Shown piece by piece: positions 9,983 to 42,300 of a stretch of 64,000 nt of DNA. Where the stretch lies: positions 1-64,000 of the IMG/VR virus record IMGVR_UViG_3300046373_000069; one strand, 5' to 3'. Position 1 is the first letter of the stretch, and each line of letters starts with the position of its first letter. The stretch comes from a virus. A program made the translations under genes and the position numbers. The notes under the pieces are model-generated. The model did no database searches and was not told where the DNA came from. It was given only the letters and a program-made list of their open reading frames with translations.

Positions 9983-10426
9983 ATGACCACCACCTTCACT
10001 TCTTCCGACGACATCATCAACGTTTCCGACATCACCGACCGCGTAGAAGAACTGCGGGACGAATTGGAAGCGCTGGAGCAGGACGTTACCGAAGCCAACG
10101 AAAGCGGTGCAGCTACTGAGCATGCCGAAGCTATGAAGGCTCTTGCGGACTGGCGCGGCGAGAACGCCGAAGAACTGAAAAACTTGGAAGCCTTGCTCTC
10201 CTCCCTGTGCGGCTACGGTGGCGACCACAAATGGGAGGGCGACTGGTATCCTGCAACGTTGATCCATGAAGATCATTTTGAATACGCTATGAATGAAATG
10301 TTGGAAGACATCGGCGCGATTCCTAAAGACATTCCTGAGTACCTCACCATCACGGTTAATTACGATGCACTGAAGCAAGATTACTCGGAAGTGGGATTTG
10401 ACGGGAACACGTTCTACTATCGTTGA
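9983..10426 (+). CDS. acidic ArdA-like antirestriction protein / DNA mimic (putative)
   Basis: very D/E-rich; C-terminal IPKDIPEYL.ITVNYDAL resembles the ArdA C-terminus; own strong promoter. Confidence 0.55.
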   Translation: MTTTFTSSDDIINVSDITDRVEELRDELEALEQDVTEANESGAATEHAEAMKALADWRGENAEELKNLEALLSSLCGYGGDHKWEGDWYPATLIHEDHFEYAMNEMLEDIGAIPKDIPEYLTITVNYDALKQDYSEVGFDGNTFYYR

Positions 10427-10531
10427 AGTACCGAACACGAGCACAAATAAGAAAAATAAAGCTTGTGTTCTGAATTTTAATGTGCAATACTAGAATCACT
10501 TAAACGAAACAAACTTCTCAGGAGAAACATC

Positions 10532-10780
10532 ATGGCAACCAACAAAACTTTTAACGGGGCGAAAAATTGGAACCACTGGAACGTTTCCCTCTGGATTAAC
10601 AACGATGAGGGCCTGTACCGCATGGCGAAAGATTACATCCGTGAGGCTAAAGACTGTGGAGGCCGTGAAGAGGCTGCAAAGATGATGCTCGACGCGCTGC
10701 AAGAGAGTGGCATCACGCACACTCCAGACGGTGCACCATACAGCGTCACCACAATCCGTGCTGCAATGCGTGGTATGTAA
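10532..10780 (+). CDS. conserved phage early protein (NG.KNW..WNVSLWINNDEGLY family)
   Basis: recognisable phage motif, own promoter and AGGAG RBS. Confidence 0.7.
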   Translation: MATNKTFNGAKNWNHWNVSLWINNDEGLYRMAKDYIREAKDCGGREEAAKMMLDALQESGITHTPDGAPYSVTTIRAAMRGM

Positions 10781-11363
10781 GACTACAGCCCCGCGCAAGC
10801 CTCCGCAAAGAGGTTATGCAGGGAATGAATGGAATGCTTTGGGGAACATAATGAAGAACCTAGAAGAAATGCGTAAAAATGTGGCACTCGCTCGTAGCAA
10901 TGCTTTAGAGGCCTACATCCAATATAAGCGAGGCTTCGCGACTATGGGGGACTACGGCAAAGCTTGGGAGAATTATAAAGAGCTTGACTCAGAATTATTC
11001 ATTGTTGAAGGGCAGGCGGTTTTGAGCCTTCTGTAGCAAACACAAAAATAATAAGAAAGGGCTTGCGGGAAGTGAGGTAGTGTGAGATAGTATGTGTATT
11101 GACGAAGCAAACACAACCCTAACACACGAGGAGACACAAAATGCCCAGCTACTCAGTTTTGAATCTCGACGCACGATTTTCCGTTTCCCAAGAACTTACC
11201 CTCGTGTTCCTTGAGGTTTGGACAGCGCGCTGCGAGGAGACGGTGTTAGGCATGTTTGGTAGTCGCCTTGCTGCTGAGCATGCGTGCTACTGGTCAGCCT
11301 CGCAAGAGTGCTGTCTTGAAGAAGCTTGATTAATCCGTAAACGTATTTATTTTGGAGAATGCT

Positions 11364-11684
11364 ATGAAAGAAAGTGAACGCTTGAGGGCTGCAAGGAAGC
11401 TGATTGAGAAGCCTGAGAATTGGATGCAGGGTGGATACGCTGATAACCCCCATAACGGCCTTGCAAATGCTTGTAGGTTCTGCTCAATTGGTGCTGTGCT
11501 CAGGGTCCGTGGAGAAGAGGTCACTGCCCTAGACTTTAACAGCACTTCTCGTTATCTGCAAAGGGTGCTGGACAACATGAATGAGGGGAGTTGTGTGGCC
11601 GACTTTAACGACAACCACTCGCACTCCCATGTCATGGAGTTATTTGACGCTGCGATTACCATTGCTGAGAGTGAAGAAAGCTAA
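11364..11684 (+). CDS. conserved phage protein (DUF6197-like)
   Basis: W.QG..A, FCSIGA, FND...H..V..LFD motifs. Confidence 0.6.
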   Translation: MKESERLRAARKLIEKPENWMQGGYADNPHNGLANACRFCSIGAVLRVRGEEVTALDFNSTSRYLQRVLDNMNEGSCVADFNDNHSHSHVMELFDAAITIAESEES

Positions 11685-13887
11685 AATGTCAAAAGAATAC
11701 ATTCACAGGACGACCCTTGCAGCAATCCACGCATGGGCCAACAGCGACACTTACGACAGATATGCTTGCTGGATTTCCACCCAGAAAAAAGGTGGGAAGT
11801 GGTGGGCAGCACAAGACACCATCTAGCAAGCCTACTACAAATAAACAACACAAGAATTCCGTTAAGCGCTAAGAAAAGGCTTGACGGTATTCGCACGCCT
11901 GTTGTATAGTTAGTTCATCCGAGCAAATCTGCTCAAAACACTAACGTACAGGAGCACCCTATGCAAGACGCCCTTTCCACTTTCCTCGAAGTTTCCCTTT
12001 ACGTCATCTCCGGTGCCTTCTGCATCTTCGCAGCTACCCACACGCTACCAATGGGCCTCACGGCTTTCTCTGCTGGCTCCCTCCTCACTTGCTTCTCTTG
12101 TGCGGCATGGAGCATTTACAAGCTCCTCGTGCGGGGCGTCTGATGTCATTCTCTCTAGTCAACGAACTCTTCCTATACCTGACATGGGTTTGTGTAGGAT
12201 TTCTTCTGTGCTTACTACTTCAGCGCAACAAAGATAATGACGACGATAGCTAAAATAAGCTTGCACTAGATAGCGAGTGTGCTAAGATGTACTCACTAAC
12301 ACAGCACAAGGAACACCATGCCAGACAGCAAAGACAAGCTCCCGCTCATAGACGATATTGAAAGCGTCCAAAGGGACACAGAGGAAGCGCTGAAGGGGCT
12401 GCGGGTTGTGCTGGCAATCATTGTTGTTTGCTTCATCGGGGCAGTGTGCGGACTTATTTATTTTACTTAGGAGCTTGACATGACATCGTTTGAATTCGGC
12501 GTAGGGACGTATCCAACGTTGGCAATGCGGAGTAGAGCGCACAGGGAGGGCGTCTACGCGGGTAAGCATAGCGGGAAGTATGATAGGGTCCACGAACCAA
12601 GGGCAATTGCTTTCGAATACCCTTTCGGTATGCAAGTGAAGGCCCTCAACAGGAAGCAGCGCAAACAGCTTAAACTGAGCGAAGGAGAAATGTGGTGAAA
12701 TACAATTTCAAGTTTAAGATTGGCGACGTTGTGAAGCACAAGGTGGGAGACGAGTGCATATACATTCAGCAAACCGCATTCAACTCCCACACAGAGCAAG
12801 CACTGTATATAGTGTACACAAACACTGGCTGTGACTACTTCATGGCAGAGTCTTTTGAGAAGTTTTATGAGGTGAAGAAATGAACTACATCCTAATTTTT
12901 GTATTCCTCTGGAGCAGCGGACATCCGGAGTCTACGTCTCAAAGCGTAAAGTTTCACTCTTTGAAGGCGTGCCAAGCGGCTGCTCTGGAAATTCGGAAGC
13001 AGGCTGCAAAAGAAGCCCACAAACTACCAATTCTAGTTTGTGCAGCGGAGCATCTATGACCCTCACCCCAGAGCAAGCTAGTAACCTCCTCAGCGCCCTG
13101 CAAAACCTCTGCATCGCATTTGCAGACATGTGTGATCGCACGGGGTATAATGCTGGGGCGTATTATACGTACAGAGCAGCGCAAAAAGTGATTGAAGAGA
13201 CTTTAGGAGAAACACAATGAATAACTCTAAAATTTCCGCACTGGAAGCTTCCCAGATTATGATTCTTGCCGAAGATTGGGCGAATGCCAAAGCTAAACAC
13301 GCACAAAACCCTAAATCGTATTACTACGAGATAGCGCTACTGGCAGAGCAAGCCCTGCGAGACTTCGTGAACGAGCTTGCTGACGCTAAATAACCCTTGT
13401 AAACCCTCCTCCACAATGTTATTCTGAACACATCAACAGGAGAACAAAATGCTGCCTATATTTATCTGGTTAGTTTGCTTCACCATCGTCTTCTCAATCC
13501 TGCTCGTCTACGTCTGCATGGCTGAAGTGAAGCCTCCGAAGATGCCCGAAGAGATGCGTATGCGTCTACGTGAATGGGGAGAGGCAGAATGAGCGCCAAC
13601 ACTATTGCATACCTTTCCATCTTGGCCCTAGTATTGTTCGTATTTGCGGTGGGGGTAATAGCAAGACGGAATGACAGAATTGCAGAACTAACTGACGAGG
13701 ATCTAGAGCAAGCTATTTTTCGGGAAAGCTTGCAAGGGAACTTGGACAGTGTGTATAGTAGGGAGCGGCAGATGCGGCAGGGGAAGGGTTGTTAACCAAA
13801 ATAGAGCTTGCATTATCTTTGTTATTGTGGCACACTGAATTCGTTGAAACAAAACACAGCCCGATAGGGCAAACACAGGAGAATATC

Positions 13888-15544: not shown

Positions 15545-15725
15545 TTAGACTTAGAGGAAGCTTTCTCTTCTTTATCTCTTTTCTTATCTATTACATCTAT
15601 CTCTTAGTACGGTAGCTCTGAGGCAATTAAATGCCTCTCTCTGAGGCATATCAACGTCACAGTGAGGCGTATCTACTTCAGGCTGAGGCTTTGACAGCTT
15701 ACACAATTGCCTCTCTCTGAGGCAT
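15545..15725. repeat. iteron-like array plus AT-rich tract (putative replication origin)
   Basis: TGAGGC at 15619, 15642, 15663, 15684, 15718; TGCCTC-N5-GAGGCA palindromes; pyrimidine/AT-rich tract 15560-15607. Confidence 0.7.
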
Positions 15726-15734
15726 ATCTAACAC

Positions 15735-15796: not shown

Positions 15797-15991
15797 ATGC
15801 GATTAGACCTTAACTTAGACATCATCCGATGGATCGATGCGAACAAAGGCGACAAGTCAAGACCAGCTTTTATTATATCAAAGCTAAGAGAACTAATGCA
15901 AGACACGAAGCCTAACGGCACAATCCATACGAAGGGACTACATGAAGAAAATATCTCCTATGGAGCTAACCACGCTCCTGAACAGAACTAA
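15797..15991 (+). CDS. ribbon-helix-helix-like DNA-binding protein
   Basis: MRLDL..DIIRWID....SRPAFI...LRE pattern, AAGGA RBS. Confidence 0.55.
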   Translation: MRLDLNLDIIRWIDANKGDKSRPAFIISKLRELMQDTKPNGTIHTKGLHEENISYGANHAPEQN

Positions 15992-16526
15992 GGTTTCTGT
16001 TTCCAAATTGACAGTACACGAACACCGTCTATTGTCTTTCCTGCTGGCGAGAGTGAACAAAGACAGGTTAGCTACTCATGGCTACCTTGCTTGGCCCGGC
16101 ACTGATGAAATCATTGACTACACAGACATATCTAAATCCACTATCGAGCGACTGCGCAAAACGCTAGTTGCTGCTGGATGGGTGCAATACACGCCGGGCC
16201 ATGGTGCAGGTTCCAGCAATCATTACTACATCAACGGACAGCGTATCTATGATGCATATGTGGCATCTGGCAATAAACCACCAGAGGGGACCGTGTACGC
16301 CACAAATGTGCAGGAGAAGCCAAAGAAGCAACACGAGCGCAATAAGTCAGGACTTAAGCAGGGTAAGGTAACGCCCGTTGCGCAAGAAGTCCCCAAGGTG
16401 TCTGTCCAACCAGTGGATGGGGGCTACCCTCGCTGGCATAAGGGTGTATGGGTGACGAGCGCAGAACACGCCCGAAGGGTGGATATTGAAGCGCAACACA
16501 CTCAAGACGAGGATTGTCCCTTTTAG
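15942..16526 (+). CDS. winged-HTH protein, replication-initiator-like N-terminus
   Basis: AWPG.DEI.DYTDISKSTIER.RKTL..AGWV resembles the HTH of phage replisome organisers. Confidence 0.65.
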   Translation: MKKISPMELTTLLNRTKVSVSKLTVHEHRLLSFLLARVNKDRLATHGYLAWPGTDEIIDYTDISKSTIERLRKTLVAAGWVQYTPGHGAGSSNHYYINGQRIYDAYVASGNKPPEGTVYATNVQEKPKKQHERNKSGLKQGKVTPVAQEVPKVSVQPVDGGYPRWHKGVWVTSAEHARRVDIEAQHTQDEDCPF

Positions 16527-18808: not shown

Positions 18809-18995
18809 ACTACAACGAGCTAAAGAGTGCTGTAGAGCAAGCTAGGCAAGCGGCTGTTGAGGCTAGGGCAGCGTATCAGCTAGCACCAACTAGAGAAGGC
18901 CTTAATACAGCACATACTAAGTGGTTTACGTATGAGTCGCTGGATAGTGACCTGCTGAGGATGGATGTGGACATTTGGTTGGAGGGGGTGTTGTG

Positions 18996-19430
18996 ATGAG
19001 GGATACACGGATTCAAGATCAAGCCTATATGCTGGCTGCGAGGCATCACAAGGGCCAACTATACGGGACAGAGCCATACACTGAACATCTGGCGGATGTC
19101 GTTCAAAGCCTTTGGATGAAGCACGGGGACAGTATCAACCCTGTGCTAGTCGCTACGGCATGGCTGCATGATGTGCTGGAGGATACTGAGTGTACTTGGG
19201 AGGAAATTGTAGCTGCGTGTGGAGATGAAGTAGCACGGGCAGTTGTGTGTCTGACAAAGCACCCCCAGCAAGCTAAAGAATGGTATATCGCAAGGATTAA
19301 AGCCTGCCCAATTGCCCTAGAGGTGAAGATTCATGACAGTTTATGCAACCTCCGTGCTAGTGTCATGAGCGGGGAGAGGGGGAGGGTACGGAAGTATTCG
19401 CAGCAGTTGATGCTGTTGGTAGAGGGGTGA
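18996..19430 (+). CDS. HD-domain hydrolase, RelA/SpoT-Mesh1 (small alarmone hydrolase) type
   Basis: H.GQ..G.EPY..H, LHDVLEDT, VK..D...N motifs. Confidence 0.8.
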   Translation: MRDTRIQDQAYMLAARHHKGQLYGTEPYTEHLADVVQSLWMKHGDSINPVLVATAWLHDVLEDTECTWEEIVAACGDEVARAVVCLTKHPQQAKEWYIARIKACPIALEVKIHDSLCNLRASVMSGERGRVRKYSQQLMLLVEG

Positions 19431-19465
19431 GAGGGATGCCCGTAAGGGGTTAGATAGCAGCACAC

Positions 19466-19493
19466 AAAAGCCCGCTCTAGGCGGGCTTTTCTT
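19466..19493. terminator. Rho-independent terminator (bidirectional type)
   Basis: AAAAGCCCGC-TCTAG-GCGGGCTTTT. Confidence 0.85.
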
Positions 19494-19667
19494 CGTCACT
19501 ATGCGTACCCCTAGGCAGCAGCTACAAGGCCCGTAGAGAGCCTATACAGGGCTGCTAGAGGGCATGCTGTACATCGTGCTATGTGTGGCCCCCCCTTCGG
19601 GGTGAGGGTGGCTGTGCAGCTACATGTAGGCAATGTGTTCTACCATGTGCTATGGGGCAGCTACTAC

Positions 19668-19714
19668 CCACTATATGTAGTGTTACTATGTGGCACGCCT
19701 ACTAGATGTAGGGC
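19668..19714. promoter_or_regulatory. tandem NrdR-box-like sites
   Basis: CCACTATATGTAGTGT (19668) and CTACTAGATGTAGGGC (19699), 31-bp offset. Confidence 0.65.
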
Positions 19715-19716
19715 AA

Positions 19717-19750
19717 TGTTAGTGAGTACTAACGTTAGCGGTTACTAACA
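19717..19750. promoter_or_regulatory. two adjacent SlmA-binding-site (SBS)-like palindromes
   Basis: GTGAGTACTAAC (11/12 to GTGAGTACTCAC) with GTTA flank, then GTTAGCGGTTACTAAC. Confidence 0.55.
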
Positions 19751-19834
19751 TAGGGTTAAGCAAACAATCACGCCTTCTTCTTCGCATACGAAGTAGTTTC
19801 CTTTACAACAACACCCCTCCCAGACACCTCGAAA

Positions 19835-19891
19835 TGTTGCTAACAAGCATTGCGTTGCAGCAGGGCAACATCTAGTTGCTACGAAGCAACA
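19835..19891. repeat. three GTTGC-N6-GCA(AC) palindromic operators
   Basis: TGTTGC-TAACAA-GCATTG, GTTGC-AGCAGG-GCAACA, GTTGC-TACGAA-GCAACA. Confidence 0.65.
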
Positions 19892-20395
19892 TCAGAGGGC
19901 ACATTTTCGCCTTGACTTCCTAGTGCGTGCTGGGCGGTGGGTGATAGGGTGCCCGATGGGGCGTAGCTGGCATGGATGGACAGGGAGATGGAGACGCTTA
20001 ATCCTTTAGAATCAATGACATGCACCTACTCAGGCAGGCTCGACATTCACGCATCGCATACCTGAAAATGGACCCTTAGGGAACCAAAAGGGGATGGATT
20101 AGAGGCTCCAGAAGGCGTCGAAAGGGCGTGCTGGTAGGTGCACAAGGGACGCCCTCTGATCGTCGCTCCTACGTCATATTTGACCCGCTCTAGTGCTATG
20201 GGCGACCCCGTATGGGCCATGTTTAACCACGTTTGTAAGCCTGTAACATTCTCAAAAGTGCCTATTTGACCCATCTTTTCGTCCACTTTTAGCCTTGTTT
20301 GAGATACTTTTTCATATGATTTCGCACAGCAAAACTACGAAGTGGGCTATCCAAAAATAATTTTTAGAAAATTTCAAGTTTCCTGAAAAGGGCCA

Positions 20396-20424
20396 TTGAC
20401 AGATGCGTTTATAGCCGCTACAAT
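20396..20424 (+). promoter_or_regulatory. sigma70 promoter of recombinase gene
   Basis: TTGACA-17-TACAAT. Confidence 0.8.
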
Positions 20425-20469
20425 GACTGCATCAACTAGCAACTTTGCACACACAAACAGGAGCTTGAA

Positions 20470-21114
20470 ATGACTACTACATATTTTTATACGAGGGTGT
20501 CCCTTGAAGAGCAGACGACAGAGAACCAGAAGCTTGCTGCTAAGGCCGCTGGCCTGACGATTGACGAGTGCTTCACTGACCACGGTGTGTCAGGTGGAGT
20601 GAAGGCTATGGAGCGTCCTGAGTTCGCCCGCATGGCTGCTCTTGTGAAAGCCGGTGACATCCTCGCAGTGAATAGCGTTGATCGCATCGGACGAGACACT
20701 GTGGACGTTCTCTCTACTGTGGAAATGTTCCAAGCTAAGGGTGTCAAGGTGTGTGTTCTCGCCTATGGCAATCTTGATCTTACTAGCGATATGGGTAAGA
20801 TGATATTGACAATCGCAGCAGGCTTCGCAGCCCTAGAGAGGTCGAATCTCCGCACTCGCACAAAGCAAGGCATGGCGCGTACTAAAGCGCAAGGCACGAA
20901 GCTTGGCAGGCCACTCAAGATTACTCCAGACACGCTAGCAGATATTTTGAAGGACAGGGATGCAGGTGTACCGCTGGAAGGGTTGTCTCAAAAATATAAA
21001 ATCCCCCGCAATACCATCCACAAAAATGTTGCTAAGTGGGCTGGTAAAGTGGAGGACTATCGTGTAGAGTACAAAGCTCGTGAAGTGCAGTATGCAGCGT
21101 CTAAACTCAACTAA
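20470..21114 (+). CDS. small serine recombinase (resolvase/invertase family)
   Basis: YTRVS catalytic motif, D.G.SG, RP.F, GD.L.V..VDRIGR, ER...R.RT..G, GRP + C-terminal HTH. Confidence 0.95.
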   Translation: MTTTYFYTRVSLEEQTTENQKLAAKAAGLTIDECFTDHGVSGGVKAMERPEFARMAALVKAGDILAVNSVDRIGRDTVDVLSTVEMFQAKGVKVCVLAYGNLDLTSDMGKMILTIAAGFAALERSNLRTRTKQGMARTKAQGTKLGRPLKITPDTLADILKDRDAGVPLEGLSQKYKIPRNTIHKNVAKWAGKVEDYRVEYKAREVQYAASKLN

Positions 21115-25358: not shown

Positions 25359-26123
25359 CTACTGGTAGTAATACATTTTCACAAATGCCCGCGTCAGGCC
25401 ATCACGCACGCAATCTTCAGGAGTAAACTGAACTACACCAATCATATCTTCCAAGGCGTCCAAGTCTTCGTCGGACATCCCCTTCGGTGCGTTATCAATT
25501 GTGCTATCAATAAGGGCGATAGTGGAGACAAGGCCGCTGCCGCCACGGAGGTCATTCTGCTTGTGGTCGCCCGTAAAGATGAATGTACAGTTGCGGCCAA
25601 GGCGCGTAAGCACCATTTCAAGGTCGCTATCAGTGAAGTTCTGAGCTTCTTCGATAAGCACGATAGCATCCTCAAAGGAGCGCCCACGAAGATACTCACC
25701 AGACTTAAGCTCGACATCACCCGCAGCGAGAGCATGCTCAAGAGCGCCCTTGCCCATAAACTTCTCAAGGTGGATAAGTGTTTGTGCAAAGTATGGGGAC
25801 AGCTTCTCAAACTCCGTACCGGGTAGAAGGCCAACAGACTTACCAGTGGCTACAGCAGGGCGCACAAGGTAAATCTTATCAATCACCTTAGCCTTGTACT
25901 GGGTCGCAGCCCACCAAGCAGCGAGCATACTCTTGCCAGTCCCTGCTGAGCCTTGCATGAAGAGAATCTTCACACCTTTACGCAGCAGAGACACGGCAAG
26001 CTTCTGGTTCTCTGTAGCAGGGACAAACTTGGGCACCTTCTCGGGGGCAGTGGCTTCGCTGATGATAAATTTCTCTTTCACAGGAGGCTTCTCACCACGC
26101 ACAATCTTCTCTTTACGGCGCAT
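25359..26123 (-). CDS. phoH: PhoH-family ATPase
   Basis: GSAGTGKS, RPAV, G.LPG, YLRGRSF, EEAQN, TRLG, GD..Q.D. Confidence 0.95.
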   Translation of the reverse strand: MRRKEKIVRGEKPPVKEKFIISEATAPEKVPKFVPATENQKLAVSLLRKGVKILFMQGSAGTGKSMLAAWWAATQYKAKVIDKIYLVRPAVATGKSVGLLPGTEFEKLSPYFAQTLIHLEKFMGKGALEHALAAGDVELKSGEYLRGRSFEDAIVLIEEAQNFTDSDLEMVLTRLGRNCTFIFTGDHKQNDLRGGSGLVSTIALIDSTIDNAPKGMSDEDLDALEDMIGVVQFTPEDCVRDGLTRAFVKMYYYQ

Positions 26124-27415: not shown

Positions 27416-27419
27416 AGTT

Positions 27420-27850
27420 TTGCAGTTGAGCGAAACGCTAGTAAGTGGTGATGCGGGTGGCAGACGCCATCGTTAAATTTCGGAGCGCATTTTAAAAAGG
27501 TTGTGTCCGGCCCACTGCAAATTCAACAACGCGAGAGGTACGCCCATAAAGAGTTCTCTAGGCTTAAGTAACTACGAGGAACTAATATAGAGTTGGAAAT
27601 GCTCTATCTCGCTCCAAACATGGCAATACGGCGGCAACCAGAGCGTCCCTATTCGCCATACCTTCTCTGAGTATCGCTACCAGAGGAACCACCAAATCCA
27701 GCTTGCACTGGTCGTTCGCTTGGCGTCACAGGCTGCTCGCGGGTAAGCCGCCCCTATTTTAAGAATTTCCTGTTCGGGGAATTTGTGGAGAGGGGGGTGA
27801 ACATTGCACCCTCACCGTGCGTTTGCAGGCAAGGGTGGCTGCGCACACCA
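27420..27850 (+). ncRNA. cluster of structured, partly tRNA-like non-coding elements
   Basis: ORF-free; closing stems TTGCAGT/ACTGCAA and GCGAGA/TCTCGC-T-CCA; further hairpins ending in CCA. Confidence 0.5.
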
Positions 27851-27851
27851 A

Positions 27852-28580
27852 TTACAGGCCGTGGTTTTCCGAATAACCCGCGCCTAGTTTCTCATTAACC
27901 ATATCCAACATCGCCTCTCGCCATTCGCAAGCAAGGCGGAACGCCTCGTCGTTTCCAAACTTGTTGATCGAGAAAGACTTGTTCATCTCTTCAAGCGTGA
28001 CTGGGTGAGAAACCCTAGCCATCCAGCAAGGATGCTTTGACGTGCGGTTAATTAGATTGACGCCCGTAACACCTGAAGTGTTGTTTTTGTACTTCCGTTG
28101 GTTTCTGGCTTGTGTGGCTTTCGTAGCCCACCGGACGTTAGACGGCTCGTAGTTCCCGTCATTTTTCTCGCGGTCTAGTGTGGCTTCTGGAAACGGACGT
28201 TCTCCAACGTCATTTAAGAACTGCTCAAAAGACGATGCCCATTCGTCGCACATCGTGATACCCCTGCCTCCATACCTAGGATATGCGGGGGATTTCTCGT
28301 TGAAGCAGCGTTTCTTAATGTCGTTGTAGACACCATAAAGTTCATGGTTAGACAGGCCGTGTGTTGTGTTACATGTTTTACCAACGGTACTTGCTACCTC
28401 TTTTTGCAAGCACCCGCAAGACTTCGTATTACCTGCCATTAGTGTGCTGCCTACAACCACCGCGCTGCGTCCACAGGAACACTCACATACCCATGTGTAG
28501 TTGTTTCCTCGCTTTTCTCCACGTTCAAGTACCGTCAATCTTCCAAAAGTCTGACCGACCAATTGCAAAGGGCTCCCCAT
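27852..28580 (-). CDS. HNH-AP2 homing endonuclease
   Basis: same motif set as 24563-25351, TLDR..ND.NYEP.N.RW; own leftward promoter about 28610-28640. Confidence 0.88.
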   Translation of the reverse strand: MGSPLQLVGQTFGRLTVLERGEKRGNNYTWVCECSCGRSAVVVGSTLMAGNTKSCGCLQKEVASTVGKTCNTTHGLSNHELYGVYNDIKKRCFNEKSPAYPRYGGRGITMCDEWASSFEQFLNDVGERPFPEATLDREKNDGNYEPSNVRWATKATQARNQRKYKNNTSGVTGVNLINRTSKHPCWMARVSHPVTLEEMNKSFSINKFGNDEAFRLACEWREAMLDMVNEKLGAGYSENHGL

Positions 28581-28657
28581 ATTCACTCCTCATTTATGTT
28601 TACTTATATAAGTATATCATAACAGGTGCCGTTTGTCAAGGGCTAAGAAAGATAATA

Positions 28658-30172
28658 ATGAAAAAAGATAAGAAAACCTATGGCCCTTGCTCCGAGAAGC
28701 AGCGCCTTGTATTGCAAGACACCACCACAGATGTCATTCTCATGGGAGGTGGCGCTGGCGGGGGCAAGTCCCGAATCTGCTTGACAAAGAACTTAGACGG
28801 AATACGCGATAAGAGCTTCCGATGTGTAATTTTAAGGCGCTACGAGCCTGAACTCAAGCGTCCGGGCGGGCTGATCGATGAGTCGAAGCAAGTCTATCCA
28901 GACTTCACAAAGATTCCCTACAAGACTCAAGCAAAGGTGTGGCAATTCCCGTCAGGTGCAGAAATTTCGTTTAGTGCTATTTCCTGCGACGACGATTTGG
29001 GTTCGTGGCAGGGAAGTCAGCTAACTCGAATTATGGTGGACGAGTGCGCCGATAAATGGACGGAGAAACAGGTTCTTTTCTTGCAATCTCGCCTCCGCAC
29101 AGCGGGTTCCAAGATTCACCCCCAGCTTATTTTGACTTGCAACCCAGACATCAACTCATTCCTCAAAGGGTGGGTAGATTTCTGTTTGGACCCAGATACA
29201 GGCGTGCCAATGCCGGGGACTGAGAATCGCATTCGCTGGTTTTGTGTGGAAGATAACAAAGCTCAGTGGGCAGACAGTCCTGAAGAGTGCTATGAGTTGT
29301 ACGGCCGGCCCAAAGACCTGATTTACGCTCACGGCATGACCGAAGAGCAGATGAACTCTCTAACCGCCGATGAGCGCCTGCGACTGTTCATGCCAAAGAG
29401 TTTCAGGTTCTTTTGCACAAACGTATTTGACAACCCCTACCTTCTTCCTCCAAAGAATAACAGCTACTTGGCGAGTTTGTTGGCACAACCGTATGTTAAC
29501 CAGTTGAAGTTTTTGCACGGTTCATGGACAGCCCGTGAAAGTGGTTCTATGTTCTTTAACCGTGAGTGGACGCCTATTGTTGAAATACCACCTCCCATAG
29601 CTACTCGTTGCCGCGCATGGGACTTCGCCTCTGAGGAAAAGACGAAGACAAACAATCCCGACTGGACTGCTGGCGTCCGAATGAGTCGTGACAAGTTTGG
29701 TATCTACTATGTCGAGGACGTTGTTAGGATTCAGGCCACAACAGACAAAGTGCTCAAAACCGTGGCGCAGACAGCACATGAGGACGGGGCGGCAGACTGT
29801 AGTGTTGTGATCCCTCTCGACCCCGGTGCAGCAGGAAAGTCCGCGGCTTTCTTCTACCGTACCACACTAGCCGAGAATGGCATCCCTTCAAAAATGGCAC
29901 CGACTACAGCGGGCAAAGGTAAGCTTACTCGCTTCCTTCCTTTCTGCTCAATGGCAGAAGCAGGGGCTGTCAGAGTTGTGCGTGGTGACTGGAACGACGC
30001 TTTCTTTAAAGAACTAGAATCGTTCTCTGGCGATCTTAAGTTGCAGAAAACACAAAAGGATGACCAAGTTGATGCTTGCGCTGATGCTTTCACTTCATTG
30101 GCTAAACAGGTAACAATCCCAACATTCTCATTGCCTACGTTCTCAGCCCCGTCACCCGTACCTACAATTTGA
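28658..30172 (+). CDS. terL: terminase large subunit
   Basis: Walker A GGGAGGGKS, Walker B MVDE, LTCNP, nuclease AWDFA and DDQVDA; start moved to ATG 28658. Confidence 0.95.
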   Translation: MKKDKKTYGPCSEKQRLVLQDTTTDVILMGGGAGGGKSRICLTKNLDGIRDKSFRCVILRRYEPELKRPGGLIDESKQVYPDFTKIPYKTQAKVWQFPSGAEISFSAISCDDDLGSWQGSQLTRIMVDECADKWTEKQVLFLQSRLRTAGSKIHPQLILTCNPDINSFLKGWVDFCLDPDTGVPMPGTENRIRWFCVEDNKAQWADSPEECYELYGRPKDLIYAHGMTEEQMNSLTADERLRLFMPKSFRFFCTNVFDNPYLLPPKNNSYLASLLAQPYVNQLKFLHGSWTARESGSMFFNREWTPIVEIPPPIATRCRAWDFASEEKTKTNNPDWTAGVRMSRDKFGIYYVEDVVRIQATTDKVLKTVAQTAHEDGAADCSVVIPLDPGAAGKSAAFFYRTTLAENGIPSKMAPTTAGKGKLTRFLPFCSMAEAGAVRVVRGDWNDAFFKELESFSGDLKLQKTQKDDQVDACADAFTSLAKQVTIPTFSLPTFSAPSPVPTI

Positions 30173-39317: not shown

Positions 39318-42300
39318 ATGGCGACGTATAACGTACTAAGTACTGCACCAGTACCGGTTGGCAGTAGCATCACCACTATTCGACTGAAGAGTACCTCTGC
39401 TCAAGTCCAGACCAACGTACCATTCACGTTTGGTCAACCATTTGCTCGTGGCCAGTTCCCGAAGTCCAACGCCGCTGTTGAACTGCGCACCAACAACGGG
39501 GAAATCATTCCTTGTCAGCTGGATGTCAAGGCCACCTTCAAGGATGGCTCGATCAAGCACGCCATCATTTCGGGTATCATTCCATCCCTGCCTGCTGACA
39601 AGGATACGTTCTACAACATTGTCCGCTCTAATTACGTTATTTCCGGTTTGGCACCAGTACCTTCAGACTTCTCAGAGTTCAATACGGTCTTGACCCTGAC
39701 CAATCATGGTACGGATCTAGCAGGACCATTAGAAGGTACTACCTACACCGCCGATGCAGCTAAGATCATGGCTTCAGGGAAGTATGACATTCACCTGTCT
39801 GGTCCTATTGTCAGTGAATGGCTCATGCGTGCGCCTTTGGTGGATGCTCAGGGAAATATCCATCCTGAGCTACATGCACGCTACAATATTCGTATGTATA
39901 AGGGCATCAACAAGGCTAAGATTGACTGTATCGTGGAGAATGGCTGGGTCAAACCATCTAAAAATCCTGTCAACAATGCTTTCGATCTTGGTAGCGTCAA
40001 TACACACATCTATGACTACAACATCAAAGTAGGCAGCGTAACGGTTGATAAGCGAGCTGAAAAGGGTTATCTACGTGCTCGTCTTACTGGTGCTCCGAAT
40101 ACCTATAATGGTACTAGCACTGGTGTGCCAAACAACTCGACTGTTTACACCGCAGTGATCACGATTGATGGAGTAGCTAAGCCTATTTCTGTGACTGGTT
40201 CCGCAATCCAGAATTACGGTCAATTGTACGCAGTCATCACCAGTCAACTTGGTGGATTGGGTGTTTGTATTCAGGATGAAACCAATCTAGGTCTTCGTAT
40301 TGTGTCCAATACGACTGGCAGGAATTCCTCAGTTTCGGTAGATTACGGTACCTTATTCCCAGCGCTTGGACACCCGCAGGCGTATCGCCCTATTCGTGGT
40401 GACGAACACATTCATTATGTTGCACAGCGCTGGAAGAAAACCTTCTGGTGGAATGGTGAGCCTATGCTTTTCATCGGCCATGATAAGAACTATCTGGTTG
40501 ATTCTCTAGCAGTGCCTCCATATATGCGTTCCCTGACGGGTAGCCCTGATGTAAACGCCTATAATAAAAACATGATAGCCACCAATGGCGGTATTGGTCG
40601 TAACGGCATCATGAAGAAGAACATGTTTGATTTCGGCTATGCCAATTCTATTGGTATTTTTCCTGAATGGGTTGGAGCCTTCGTCATCAGTCAAGATCCA
40701 GATTCTAAATCGGCCATGCTGGGTATGGCCGATTTGCAGGGTTCATGGCAAGTTCATTCCCGAGAAATCGATACTGATCAATGTCTGAGCTTTACCAAGT
40801 GGCCTATGGTAACGACTTCCCCAAATATTGGGGATAGTAAGAACTACACTACTGGTTTGACGGAGAAGATCCCATTTCTGTCAACGAGTCAGCCTTGGAT
40901 TCCCAATTGCGAGAATCTGGCGGATATCTCTCACCATCCAGATTCTGGCTATGTACCTTATCTGGTAACTGGCGACCACTTTTACATGGAAAATATGTTG
41001 TCGTATTTTATTACGACTTGCGTATGGCAGAACCCACACTACACATGGCGTAATGGGAATCAGGTGTTATTCAGGACAGAACAGGTACGTGCGCAGGCAT
41101 GGATGTTCCGTTCCCTAAACCATAACAGGTATCTTCTACCGGATAACCATCCTCATCGCCCTGAGCTTGAATATATCGCAGCCAGTAATGTTGAGTGGTA
41201 TAACACCAACTATGTTGCAGAGTCTGGCCCCGGTCATAGCAAATTTGGTGTTTGGGGTACGCCAGAAACAGGCATGGTTAGTGGACAAGTTAAATCTGCT
41301 TTTAGTTTGTTCATGGAAGTGTTTGCGATTCAATCCATGGGTCGTGCAGTAGAGCTGGGCTTTGAAGAGTTCTTGCCACTCTTTGGATACAAATCCAAGA
41401 TTATCAAGGGTTTGCTGACATCAGGGCCAGACTATTGCTGGCAAATGGCAACCACTTACAGAATTCAAATCAAACCCTCCAGTAATGAGCCTGAATTCGA
41501 TAATTGGAATCAGGTTTATTTGGCAACTGTTGACCCTAAAATTTCTTCTAAGGTATGCGGCTCAGTTGAAATGGGTATTGCCATTGGTGAAGGGCAGAAT
41601 AATATGGTTGGTTATCCACTGGATGTGGGTGGATATCCTGCCAATATGCAGCCAGCTGTGGCATACTGCGATACATTTGACATGCCTGGTGGCAAAGATG
41701 CATGGCTTGTATTTGATTCGAGGGTTAAAAAAGCCAATTACAACTTGGGTCCGCAATTTGGCATCGAACCGCGTACTTTCATCGCATCAACGGTTACACC
41801 CGTACCTGCGGACCCCACTGTACCCCCAACTATAGGCAAAAAATCAATGTCTCTTGCAGATCGCGTAAAAGATAGCACCACCACAACGGGCACAGGTGCA
41901 TTAACACTACTGGGTACCTCGGAAACGAACTTCCGCCCATTCCTCACACCACCTGTGAAGATTGGAGATATTGTCCCTGTCTCTATTATTCACCGCACCC
42001 TCCCCGAATGGGAAAACGGGGAATACACTCTGACATCGGCTTTGCAGCTGACCCCCCTCAGGGTGACATCCAGCTCCAATAATAATCAGAAAGTCAGCTT
42101 CAGCGCAGGCGTCAAGGATGTCGCATTGACTCTTACAGCCGATTATCTGTCAAAGCTGGCAGGCGTTAACAACACTGTTGCCAATACGTTCGGGGATACA
42201 ACAACTACGAAGCTTATGCTAGATGTCAACGGAGTTCCAACTAGTATTTCGTTGAATGATGCATCTGACACATTTGCTGACCTTCCAACTTTACCGTTGC

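Follow-up and report, generated by a model that had tools for sequence, protein, structure and literature searches.

The genome of this uncultured phage contains an ORF-free gap that is densely packed with short palindromes, and we suggest, at a probability of about 0.5, that this gap is a genome-end, packaging and entry control region which would also dock host proteins. The window that was analysed is the first 64 kb of the 93,609-bp IMG/VR virus record IMGVR_UViG_3300046373_000069. Within it, the gap runs from the end of an HD-phosphohydrolase gene (18975-19430) up to a serine recombinase gene, and a hairpin terminator near its left edge closes a long block of small rightward early genes (Table 1). 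The sequence-only reading of this DNA had described a palindrome-packed array after a strong terminator with no credible gene in the stretch, and examination of the gap bears out this description. The longest ORFs within the gap encode 79, 55, and 48 amino acids, and none of them matches a PHROG family. A decayed gene was rejected as the content of the gap, since its small ORFs lack PHROG matches, and the largest ORF-free stretch was rejected as a criterion because it is confounded by random ORFs of 50 or more amino acids. Promoter-like sites inside the gap do not exceed 9/12, and the next sigma-70-like promoter after the site array is that of the serine recombinase gene.

The palindromes were assessed by scanning the whole 93.6-kb genome for perfect inverted repeats with arms of at least 5 nt and spacers of 0-8 nt. 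The genome-wide maximum of coverage was a 470-bp segment starting at 19451, and the interval singled out by the sequence-only reading was placed at the 99th percentile. Ten perfect inverted repeats fall within 270 bp, while about 1.8 would be expected from the genome-wide density. In addition, three motif families are found here and are absent elsewhere in the 93.6-kb genome: CTAnATGTAG at 19620, 19671, and 19702, GTTAG-N6-CTAAC at 19718 and 19734, and GTTGC-N6-GCAAC at 19854 and 19875. The palindrome TTCGCATACGAA, which had been pointed out at 19781, is present as well. Because the density peaks at this locus and the motif families are confined to it, the initial description is correct and the cluster, the densest of short palindromes in the genome, is beyond chance.

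Table 1. Features of the gap and its right flank (positions refer to the 64-kb window)
Feature	Position	Strand	Remarks
ORF-free gap	19431..20469		homologous gaps at the same junction in G001, G002, G009; positionally equivalent gaps in G003, G006-G008
Hairpin terminator	19466..19490	+	10-bp GC-rich stem flanked by A-run and T-run; counterpart in G001
NrdR-like box 0 (core CTACATGTAG)	19617..19632		6/6 key positions; starts 51 bp before box 1
NrdR-like box 1 (core CTATATGTAG)	19668..19683		14/16 to consensus; 6/6 key positions
NrdR-like box 2 (core CTAGATGTAG)	19699..19714		6/6 key positions; linker to box 1 of 15 bp
Tandem GTTAG-N6-CTAAC operator-type palindromes	19718..19749		16-bp period; arms identical in G009, spacers differ
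Conserved block ATCACGCC, TTCTTCTT and palindrome CTTCGCATACGAAG	19766..19793		block common to G001, G002, G009
GTTGC-N6-GCAAC sites	19836..19890		one degenerate (19836) and two perfect, the perfect ones 21 bp apart
Conserved CAGAGGGCA..TTGAC block	19891..19916		G009 alignment
IHF-like AATCAATGACATG	20010..20022		identical 12-mer in G001; G009 counterpart is a perfect IHF core, WATCAANNNNTTR
AT-rich tract	20240..20395		holds A5/T5-type element
Sigma-70-like promoter of serine recombinase gene	20396..20424	+	11/12 match
Serine recombinase gene (resolvase/invertase type)	20470..21114	+	moron-like island adjoining the gap

Neither the gap (blastn) nor the structural block (megablast) had a DNA match in public phage records. 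When the recombinase and the HD protein were used as probes, no close relatives were found, and the HD-protein profile retrieved 80 loci, none of which has the matching gene order. The TerL probe, on the other hand, retrieved 19 IMG/VR loci at 68-89% identity, including complete 86-94-kb genomes, and seven uncultured relatives with 70-81% identical TerL were compared (G001, G002, G003, G006, G007, G008, and G009). At the same junction, all seven have 0.7-1.3 kb of ORF-free DNA, whereas conservation does not extend to the early genes that flank it. Across this junction, small early genes in rightward orientation are followed by the terminator, the gap, a leftward block of genes, a tRNA, and TerL. 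In G001 and G002, the small rightward genes and the terminator are followed by the gap, a serine recombinase gene, and a cpYpsA-like gene, and the gaps align in blocks comprising the terminator, ATCRCGYC-TTCTTCTT with the adjoining 16-bp dyad, GCAACAT..CAGAGGGCA, and AATCAATGACAT. In the other five relatives, an ORF-poor gap of 0.7-1.2 kb lies where the rightward small genes meet the leftward block, and the block order in G009 is the same as in this phage. Elements related to the A5/T5-type element are found in the gap of every relative (AAAATTT, 8/8).

In each of the seven relatives, perfect DnaA boxes form a tight cluster at a single place in the genome, which is the gap. The cluster comprises two boxes in G009, three each in G003, G006, G007, and G008, four in G001, and nine in G002, six of which follow a 12-bp period. 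Boxes paired 3 bp apart, which corresponds to a 12-bp spacing, are found in G001, G002, and G006-G008. Where in the gap the boxes lie and which way they point differ from relative to relative, and the orientation of the module in G001 and G002 is opposite to that in G006-G009. Unlike these genomes, this phage has no DnaA box in its gap even when one mismatch is allowed, and its whole genome contains a single perfect box. The perfect first box of G009 falls within the 19891-19916 block, where the alignment shows a 5-bp gap in this phage.

The comparison with G009 also bears on what kind of element the palindromes are. The sequence around the tandem GTTAG motif is 68% identical between the two phages, the GTTAG and CTAAC arms being identical and the spacers different. 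This pattern of conserved arms and changed spacers points to probable protein sites rather than hairpins. The tandem pattern was also detected in seven other viral contigs, always in intergenic DNA, and in four of six contexts in these unrelated contigs it adjoins a terminase operon. A further 45 contigs with the pattern are bacterial, mostly from Actinomycetota and Lachnospiraceae, and here it follows the -10 element and precedes the start codon of TetR-family, ArsR-family, DUF3793, and glyoxalase genes. Because of this bacterial placement, the tandem GTTAG motif is, as judged from its sequence context, an operator-type arrangement. The same palindromes had been taken as SlmA-site-like, and this label fails. 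The 12-bp SlmA palindrome GTGAGTACTCAC is matched at 11/12 positions by one copy at 19722-19733, while the G009 homologue of these positions keeps the outer arms alone and matches the SlmA core at 8/12. The SlmA reading was removed because it depends on spacer bases, which differ in G009, and it is further undercut by the occurrence of the tandem motif in phages and bacteria of phyla without SlmA. When we profiled proteins for a possible binder, those common to this phage and G009 and absent from G001, G006, and G008 were a tail protein, a short ORF that is probably spurious, and two small helical proteins without any sign of DNA binding.

To which known region the gap corresponds is suggested by TerL and by gene order. 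TerL of this phage groups with those of the PAK_P1-like, KPP10-like, Felixounavirus, rV5-like, Barba, and ICP1 phages, T5 being absent from the lists, and its closest cultured relatives are the Pseudomonas PAK_P1-like phages at about 40% identity. The members of this clade with data have short terminal repeats. Experimental mapping of the ends of PaP1 showed a terminal redundancy of 1190 bp, which makes up the final 1190 bp of its record (PMC3652863); the terminal repeat of PseuGes_254 is 628 bp. In the PaP1 map, about 16 kb of small rightward genes is followed by a terminator at 90101 and then by ORF-poor DNA, which is the most palindrome-dense part of the stretch examined and runs into the repeat. 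The repeat holds a moron-like gene with its own promoter, and beyond the genome end comes a leftward block with a ClpP gene, tRNAs, and TerL. This phage shows small rightward genes, the terminator, the gap, the recombinase island, a leftward ClpP-like block, tRNA-Thr, and TerL, and its gap, with the rightward small genes on one side and the leftward block before tRNA and TerL on the other, matches the terminal-repeat region of PAK_P1-like phages in position. In PAK_P3, the early genes are likewise followed by a gap, 0.9 kb long, in which one 10-mer occurs seven times alongside paired palindromes, and according to the authors of the PAK_P3 study this gap is the predicted genome terminus and the sole untranscribed place (PMC4933390). 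Both phages share with this one the gene-order position on both sides, the succession of a terminator and ORF-poor DNA whose palindrome density is the highest in the region examined, and a moron-like gene, in or next to the region, that has its own promoter. They differ from it in TerL, at about 40% identity, and in their DNA, which shows no similarity. The motif families differ as well, as PaP1 has AGC-N3-4-GCT palindromes and PAK_P3 has ATTGTGTAAC repeats. The stretches of PaP1 and PAK_P3 that we read contain no perfect DnaA box.

Several lines of evidence lead us to favor an end region. First, the gene order on both sides matches that of PaP1, whose mapped terminal redundancy fills the equivalent interval. 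Second, PAK_P3 has its repeat-packed, untranscribed predicted terminus after the early genes. Third, the members of the TerL clade with data carry short terminal repeats. Fourth, the gap is kept in seven relatives despite the lack of conservation in the flanking early genes. Fifth, the tandem GTTAG motif adjoins a terminase operon in most of its unrelated viral contexts. Sixth, mobile genes (resolvase, AP2, and HNH genes) gather at the flanks of the gap, as they do at the terminal repeats of PaP1 and T5. Finally, conserved arms with changed spacers indicate probable protein sites, and the Rfam, folding-energy, and promoter results give no support for an RNA. For this phage, we infer both that its ends lie in the gap and which proteins would bind there and how they would act. 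The gap would be a non-transcribed interval that holds or borders a short direct terminal repeat in the concatemeric replicating DNA, and it would be the place where terminase, together with accessory proteins, recognises and cleaves the DNA. Docking at the palindromes and repeats would then be the task of dimeric DNA-binding proteins, which may mark the end for packaging and may also act on the incoming or replicating end by anchoring, protection, and possibly initiation. The relatives would use host DnaA for part of this end-marking role, and in this phage the DnaA boxes would have been replaced by other sites, including a pair that resembles the host NrdR operator. Alternatively, the ends may lie in other non-coding stretches of this phage, at about 8.2-8.8 kb and 27.4-27.85 kb.

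A resemblance to the untranslated injection-stop region of T5 had also been proposed, and it is real, with the homologous gaps of the seven relatives carrying clusters of DnaA boxes, often as 3-bp pairs. The T5 iss, or Repeat Region 3, is untranslated and rich in palindromes and repeats, and contains a series of DnaA boxes paired 3 bp apart (bioRxiv 10.1101/866236). Like the gap described here, it is an untranslated stretch of about 1-1.2 kb located after the first-expressed small genes, it contains palindromes with direct and inverted repeats, it is conserved while the neighbouring ORFs are not, and a homing-endonuclease gene is inserted nearby. The spacing of its box pairs is the same 12 bp as in G001, G002, and G006-G008. 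It differs from the gap in this phage, which has no DnaA box and no sequence in common with it, and the TerL proteins differ too, that of this phage belonging to the PAK_P1-like/Felixounavirus clade and not to that of T5. T5 has a long terminal repeat, at whose inner end the iss stops the entry of DNA, a two-step injection, and the A1/A2 genes, and the likeness to it here is one of sequence architecture alone. Nevertheless, the gap is closer in its features to the T5 untranslated repeat region than to a decoy of a novel type.

Regions of this kind, devoid of genes and crowded with sites at or close to the genome end, are already known from T5 and can also be seen in PaP1 and PAK_P3. What is new is that such a region is shared by a whole group of uncultured myophages of 86-94 kb, that seven members have put their only cluster of host DnaA boxes in it with the T5-type 3-bp pair spacing, and that this phage has swapped these boxes for other operator-type sites, including a textbook-shaped NrdR-like pair. 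This natural swap offers a direct comparison for the roles that host proteins may play at phage DNA ends, such as anchoring, entry pausing, replication start, and titration. It is also a warning to annotators that such gaps are functional DNA, neither junk nor missed genes.

Here, we need to weigh a replication origin of the iteron/DnaA-box type, which we regard as unlikely and yet as a serious contender. In such an origin, initiators (host DnaA in the relatives and a dimeric protein in this phage) would bind the phased sites, the DNA would bend at the IHF-like site, and the AT-rich tract would open for the DnaB-like helicase, which is encoded by the phage together with a family A DNA polymerase. 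Known origins of this type include the lambda O iterons inside the O gene, P1 oriR, and pSC101-type plasmid origins. With these, this phage shares 16-bp dyads phased 21 bp apart, together with an IHF-like site and an AT-rich tract, and the relatives share DnaA boxes; the same GTTGC array lies within O-like genes of other viral contigs. An end region and an origin are equally good explanations of the DnaA boxes, phased dyads, IHF-like block, and AT-rich tract, and the two could both be true; the authors of the PaP1 study placed a GC-skew origin at the genome end.

The GTTGC sites are of particular relevance to this possibility. Three such sites had been proposed, of which the two at 19854 and 19875 have perfect arms; the third, 18 bp upstream of them, is degenerate. 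The spacers differ among the sites. Among the relatives, G009 has one perfect copy and G001 has two copies with 9 of 10 arm bases. When the phased pair (21 bp apart) was used as a search pattern, 12 viral contigs were retrieved, and in several of them the 21-bp arrays are located in or beside replication-initiator or primase genes, as is the case for a Phage_rep_O gene (L006), a site beside DnaB (L002), winged-helix proteins (L005 and L008), and a primase (L003). In L012, the array is flanked by DnaA boxes and AT-rich DNA, and in one other viral contig it lies just upstream of the small terminase gene. The IHF-like AATCAATGACATG proposed at 20010 is likewise present and kept in G001, but it is a partial match, with 2/3 at the TTR end of the IHF core. 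Several observations nevertheless weigh against an origin in this phage. Its gap lacks the DnaA boxes, the perfect GTTGC sites are just two and have unlike spacers, in contrast to true iterons, and no initiator gene is adjacent, the neighbours being the HD hydrolase and the serine recombinase. The nearest winged-helix gene (15942-16526), which has its own repeats, is 3 kb from the gap. In the relatives, the AT-rich tract is 300-550 bp away from the DnaA boxes, and the variable position and orientation of the boxes also argue against an origin.

We then examined the two NrdR-box-like 16-mers that had been claimed by the sequence-only reading. NrdR sites are characterized by C4, A6, A8, T9, T11, and G13, an AT-rich middle, and a linker of 15-16 bp (2026 mutational study, PMC13584703), and we required two 16-bp boxes with at least 63% A+T from C4 to G13. 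The A+T content between these positions is 88% in the box at 19668 and 75% in that at 19699, and with its six conserved positions and its 15-bp linker this candidate pair agrees with every published sequence criterion of an NrdR operator (PMC13584703). A third full box, beyond the two that had been claimed, was found at 19617. Five of the 21 full-core boxes of the genome lie in this 1 kb, where 0.25 would be expected, and the pair at 19668 and 19699 is the sole full phased pair in the genome; any such pair was found in just 4 of 300 shuffled genomes. At the equivalent place, G002 has two boxes with 5/6 key positions and a 30-bp period, while the whole genomes of G001, G006, G008, and G009 contain no full pair. 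Unlike a known NrdR operator, the pair in this phage is outside any ribonucleotide reductase operon promoter. No gene or promoter lies within 700 bp of it, and the phage's own nrdA and nrdB genes, located 47 kb away at 66-69 kb, carry no NrdR boxes. Since the three CTAnATGTAG cores share nine fixed bases and are thereby more alike than NrdR recognition requires, a protein other than NrdR may read them.

These boxes are the main reason for considering a decoy, in which the rising number of phage copies would draw host repressors away from their own promoters; the NrdR-like pair in this phage and the DnaA boxes in the relatives would release the host ribonucleotide reductase genes or alter host initiation. 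We consider this improbable. The specific form in which the gap would act as a sponge, drawing off host repressors that restrict dNTP supply and the initiation of replication by a canonical tandem NrdR operator without a gene to regulate here and by DnaA boxes in the relatives, is in our judgement slightly less probable still, and if true it would mean a protein-free manipulation of the host via DNA copy number. In addition to the completeness, uniqueness, and local enrichment of the NrdR-like boxes and the partial pair in G002, a decoy is favored by the lack of any gene placed where the pair could serve as its operator. DnaA boxes are host-protein sites by definition. Furthermore, a search of five phage records found no TetR-family gene, though the tandem GTTAG motif precedes TetR- and ArsR-family genes in bacteria. 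The datA and DARS loci of E. coli, which are not origins and in which clusters of DnaA boxes with an IHF site titrate or recycle DnaA, are comparable with the gaps of the relatives, where non-coding DNA likewise combines clustered DnaA boxes with an IHF-like site, but the boxes are absent in this phage. A decoy is also weakened by the excessive likeness of the three cores, by the four relatives without a full pair, and by the phage nrdAB genes without boxes. Moreover, a 14/16 match to the NrdR consensus also occurs by chance within a coding gene at 12800, and the large number of regulator motifs to choose among weakens the statistics. The gene order shared with PaP1, or a replication origin, is a better explanation for the location of the gap than a decoy.

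Two further alternatives are unlikely. The gap might be a res or inversion site at which the adjacent serine recombinase resolves multimers or flips a segment, and to this we assign a very low probability. A resolvase/invertase gene does abut the gap in this phage, G001, G002, and, on the opposite strand, G009, and the DnaA-box module has opposite orientations in the two groups of relatives. However, the palindromes measure 16 bp, whereas dimer sites of serine recombinases are usually 24-34 bp, and they are located 580-850 bp upstream of the recombinase gene and not at its promoter. The kind of site does not track the kind of recombinase either, since G001, whose recombinase is 46% identical, has no pair and G009, whose recombinase is beyond BLAST detection, has it. 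G006-G008 keep the gap with no recombinase gene alongside, and the equal block order in this phage and G009 shows no inversion. A 20-nt perfect inverted repeat between the recombinase and PhoH genes was considered as an inversion site and rejected because it is not conserved in G001 and G002. The least probable explanation is that the palindromes are the stems of one or several non-coding RNAs: it is possible to draw short hairpins, and abundant small RNAs come from other intergenic regions of PAK_P3 (PMC4933390), but the gap has no Rfam match with E below 0.1, its folding-energy z-scores (-0.39 and -0.81) show no excess, it follows a strong terminator and contains no promoter, its arms keep their sequence without covariation, and the equivalent gap of PAK_P3 is untranscribed. 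The initial view of the array, namely DNA that acts in cis by binding proteins and neither a gene nor a structured RNA, is consequently supported at the level of sequence comparison.

Returning to the end region that we favor, we also considered whether the ends of the contigs point to the physical ends of the genome, and this was rejected. The assemblies are circular, the 'terminal repeat' of the record is only a 127-bp assembler overlap, the 'terminal repeats' of the IMG/VR records of the relatives are all overlaps of the same 127 bp, and the contig ends of G009 split nrdB. As a separate observation, the contig of another related record, G005, stops about 700 bp into its own gap, which is a weak hint as to where the physical ends are.

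Two of the site families of the gap upstream of the serine recombinase gene were also observed elsewhere. In bacterial contigs from Actinomycetota, Lachnospiraceae and other groups (L149-L193), tandem GTTAG-N6-CTAAC pairs lie between a -10 element and the start codon, and the downstream genes encode TetR-family, ArsR-family, DUF3793 and glyoxalase proteins. In unrelated phages (viral contigs L141-L148) such pairs are intergenic. Tandem GTTAG-N6-CTAAC is a widespread operator-type motif. Arrays of GTTGC-N6-GCAAC with a 21-bp period and up to 8 copies were seen within or adjoining O-like winged-helix replication genes (contig stretches L002, L005, L006, L008, L011 and L012), and the L012 array has DnaA boxes and AT-rich DNA on its flanks. 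These arrays resemble lambda-style iterons belonging to a specificity group not described before.

Repeats were also found in the gaps of other phages. The untranscribed 'terminus' gap of the distant Pseudomonas phage PAK_P3 (62818-63738, L140) contains ATTGTGTAAC-like words in five direct and two inverted copies, together with pairs of identical palindromes; neither feature appears to be described in the PAK_P3 paper (PMC4933390). In the relative G002, a tandem array of DnaA boxes (Table) is followed within 220 bp by one single-mismatch box and three more perfect boxes, a density that is unusual for a phage. The 42-kb contig of another relative, G005, breaks off about 700 bp inside its own gap (end of L135; G005 41493-42181), which follows a resolvase-like gene and its terminator. 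A repeat or an altered read depth at this point may account for the break.

Coordinates of repeats and small ORFs in this phage and its relative G002
Feature	Location	Remark
Winged-helix protein, 194 aa	ORF 15942-16526	Weak matches: HTH_36, IclR, MarR
24-nt repeat containing a palindrome, 2 copies	window 15629-15652 and 15705-15728	Upstream of ORF 15942-16526
Perfect inverted repeat, 20 nt	window 20518-20537 and 25996-26015	Recombinase gene and PhoH gene, opposite strands
DnaA boxes, 6 perfect	L125 11264-11340 (G002)	Strict 12-bp tandem array
Two paralogous ORFs, about 73 aa	G000 (whole record) 81465-81686 and 88816-89040	Replication block, outside the window

Within the window, the winged-helix ORF and its upstream 24-nt repeats may constitute either a small replicon-like module or a separate regulator that has operators of its own. 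The single tRNA-Thr gene is immediately followed by the longest interval in which no ORF reaches 50 aa (27416-27851), a candidate second place for RNA genes or a genome end.

The TerL ORF (28361-30172) is similar to all relatives only from about residue 96, and therefore its true start is probably near 28646, as judged from these alignments. Since the TerL match in G006, G007, G008 and G009 is split or has a start offset of about 330 bp (in L111, for example, 10001-10108 and 10343-11761), an intron or intein-like insert is suggested.

Both ~73-aa paralogues match one single locus in G009, and nothing in G001, G006 or G008 matches either of them. Perfect 20-nt inverted repeats are expected by chance at about 0.002 per 64 kb, and conservation of the recombinase/PhoH repeat was absent in the two relatives compared (G001 and G002). 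In frame, each copy encodes TENQKLA: the first lies close to the recombinase gene's 5' end, and the second is inside the PhoH gene, which runs on the opposite strand.
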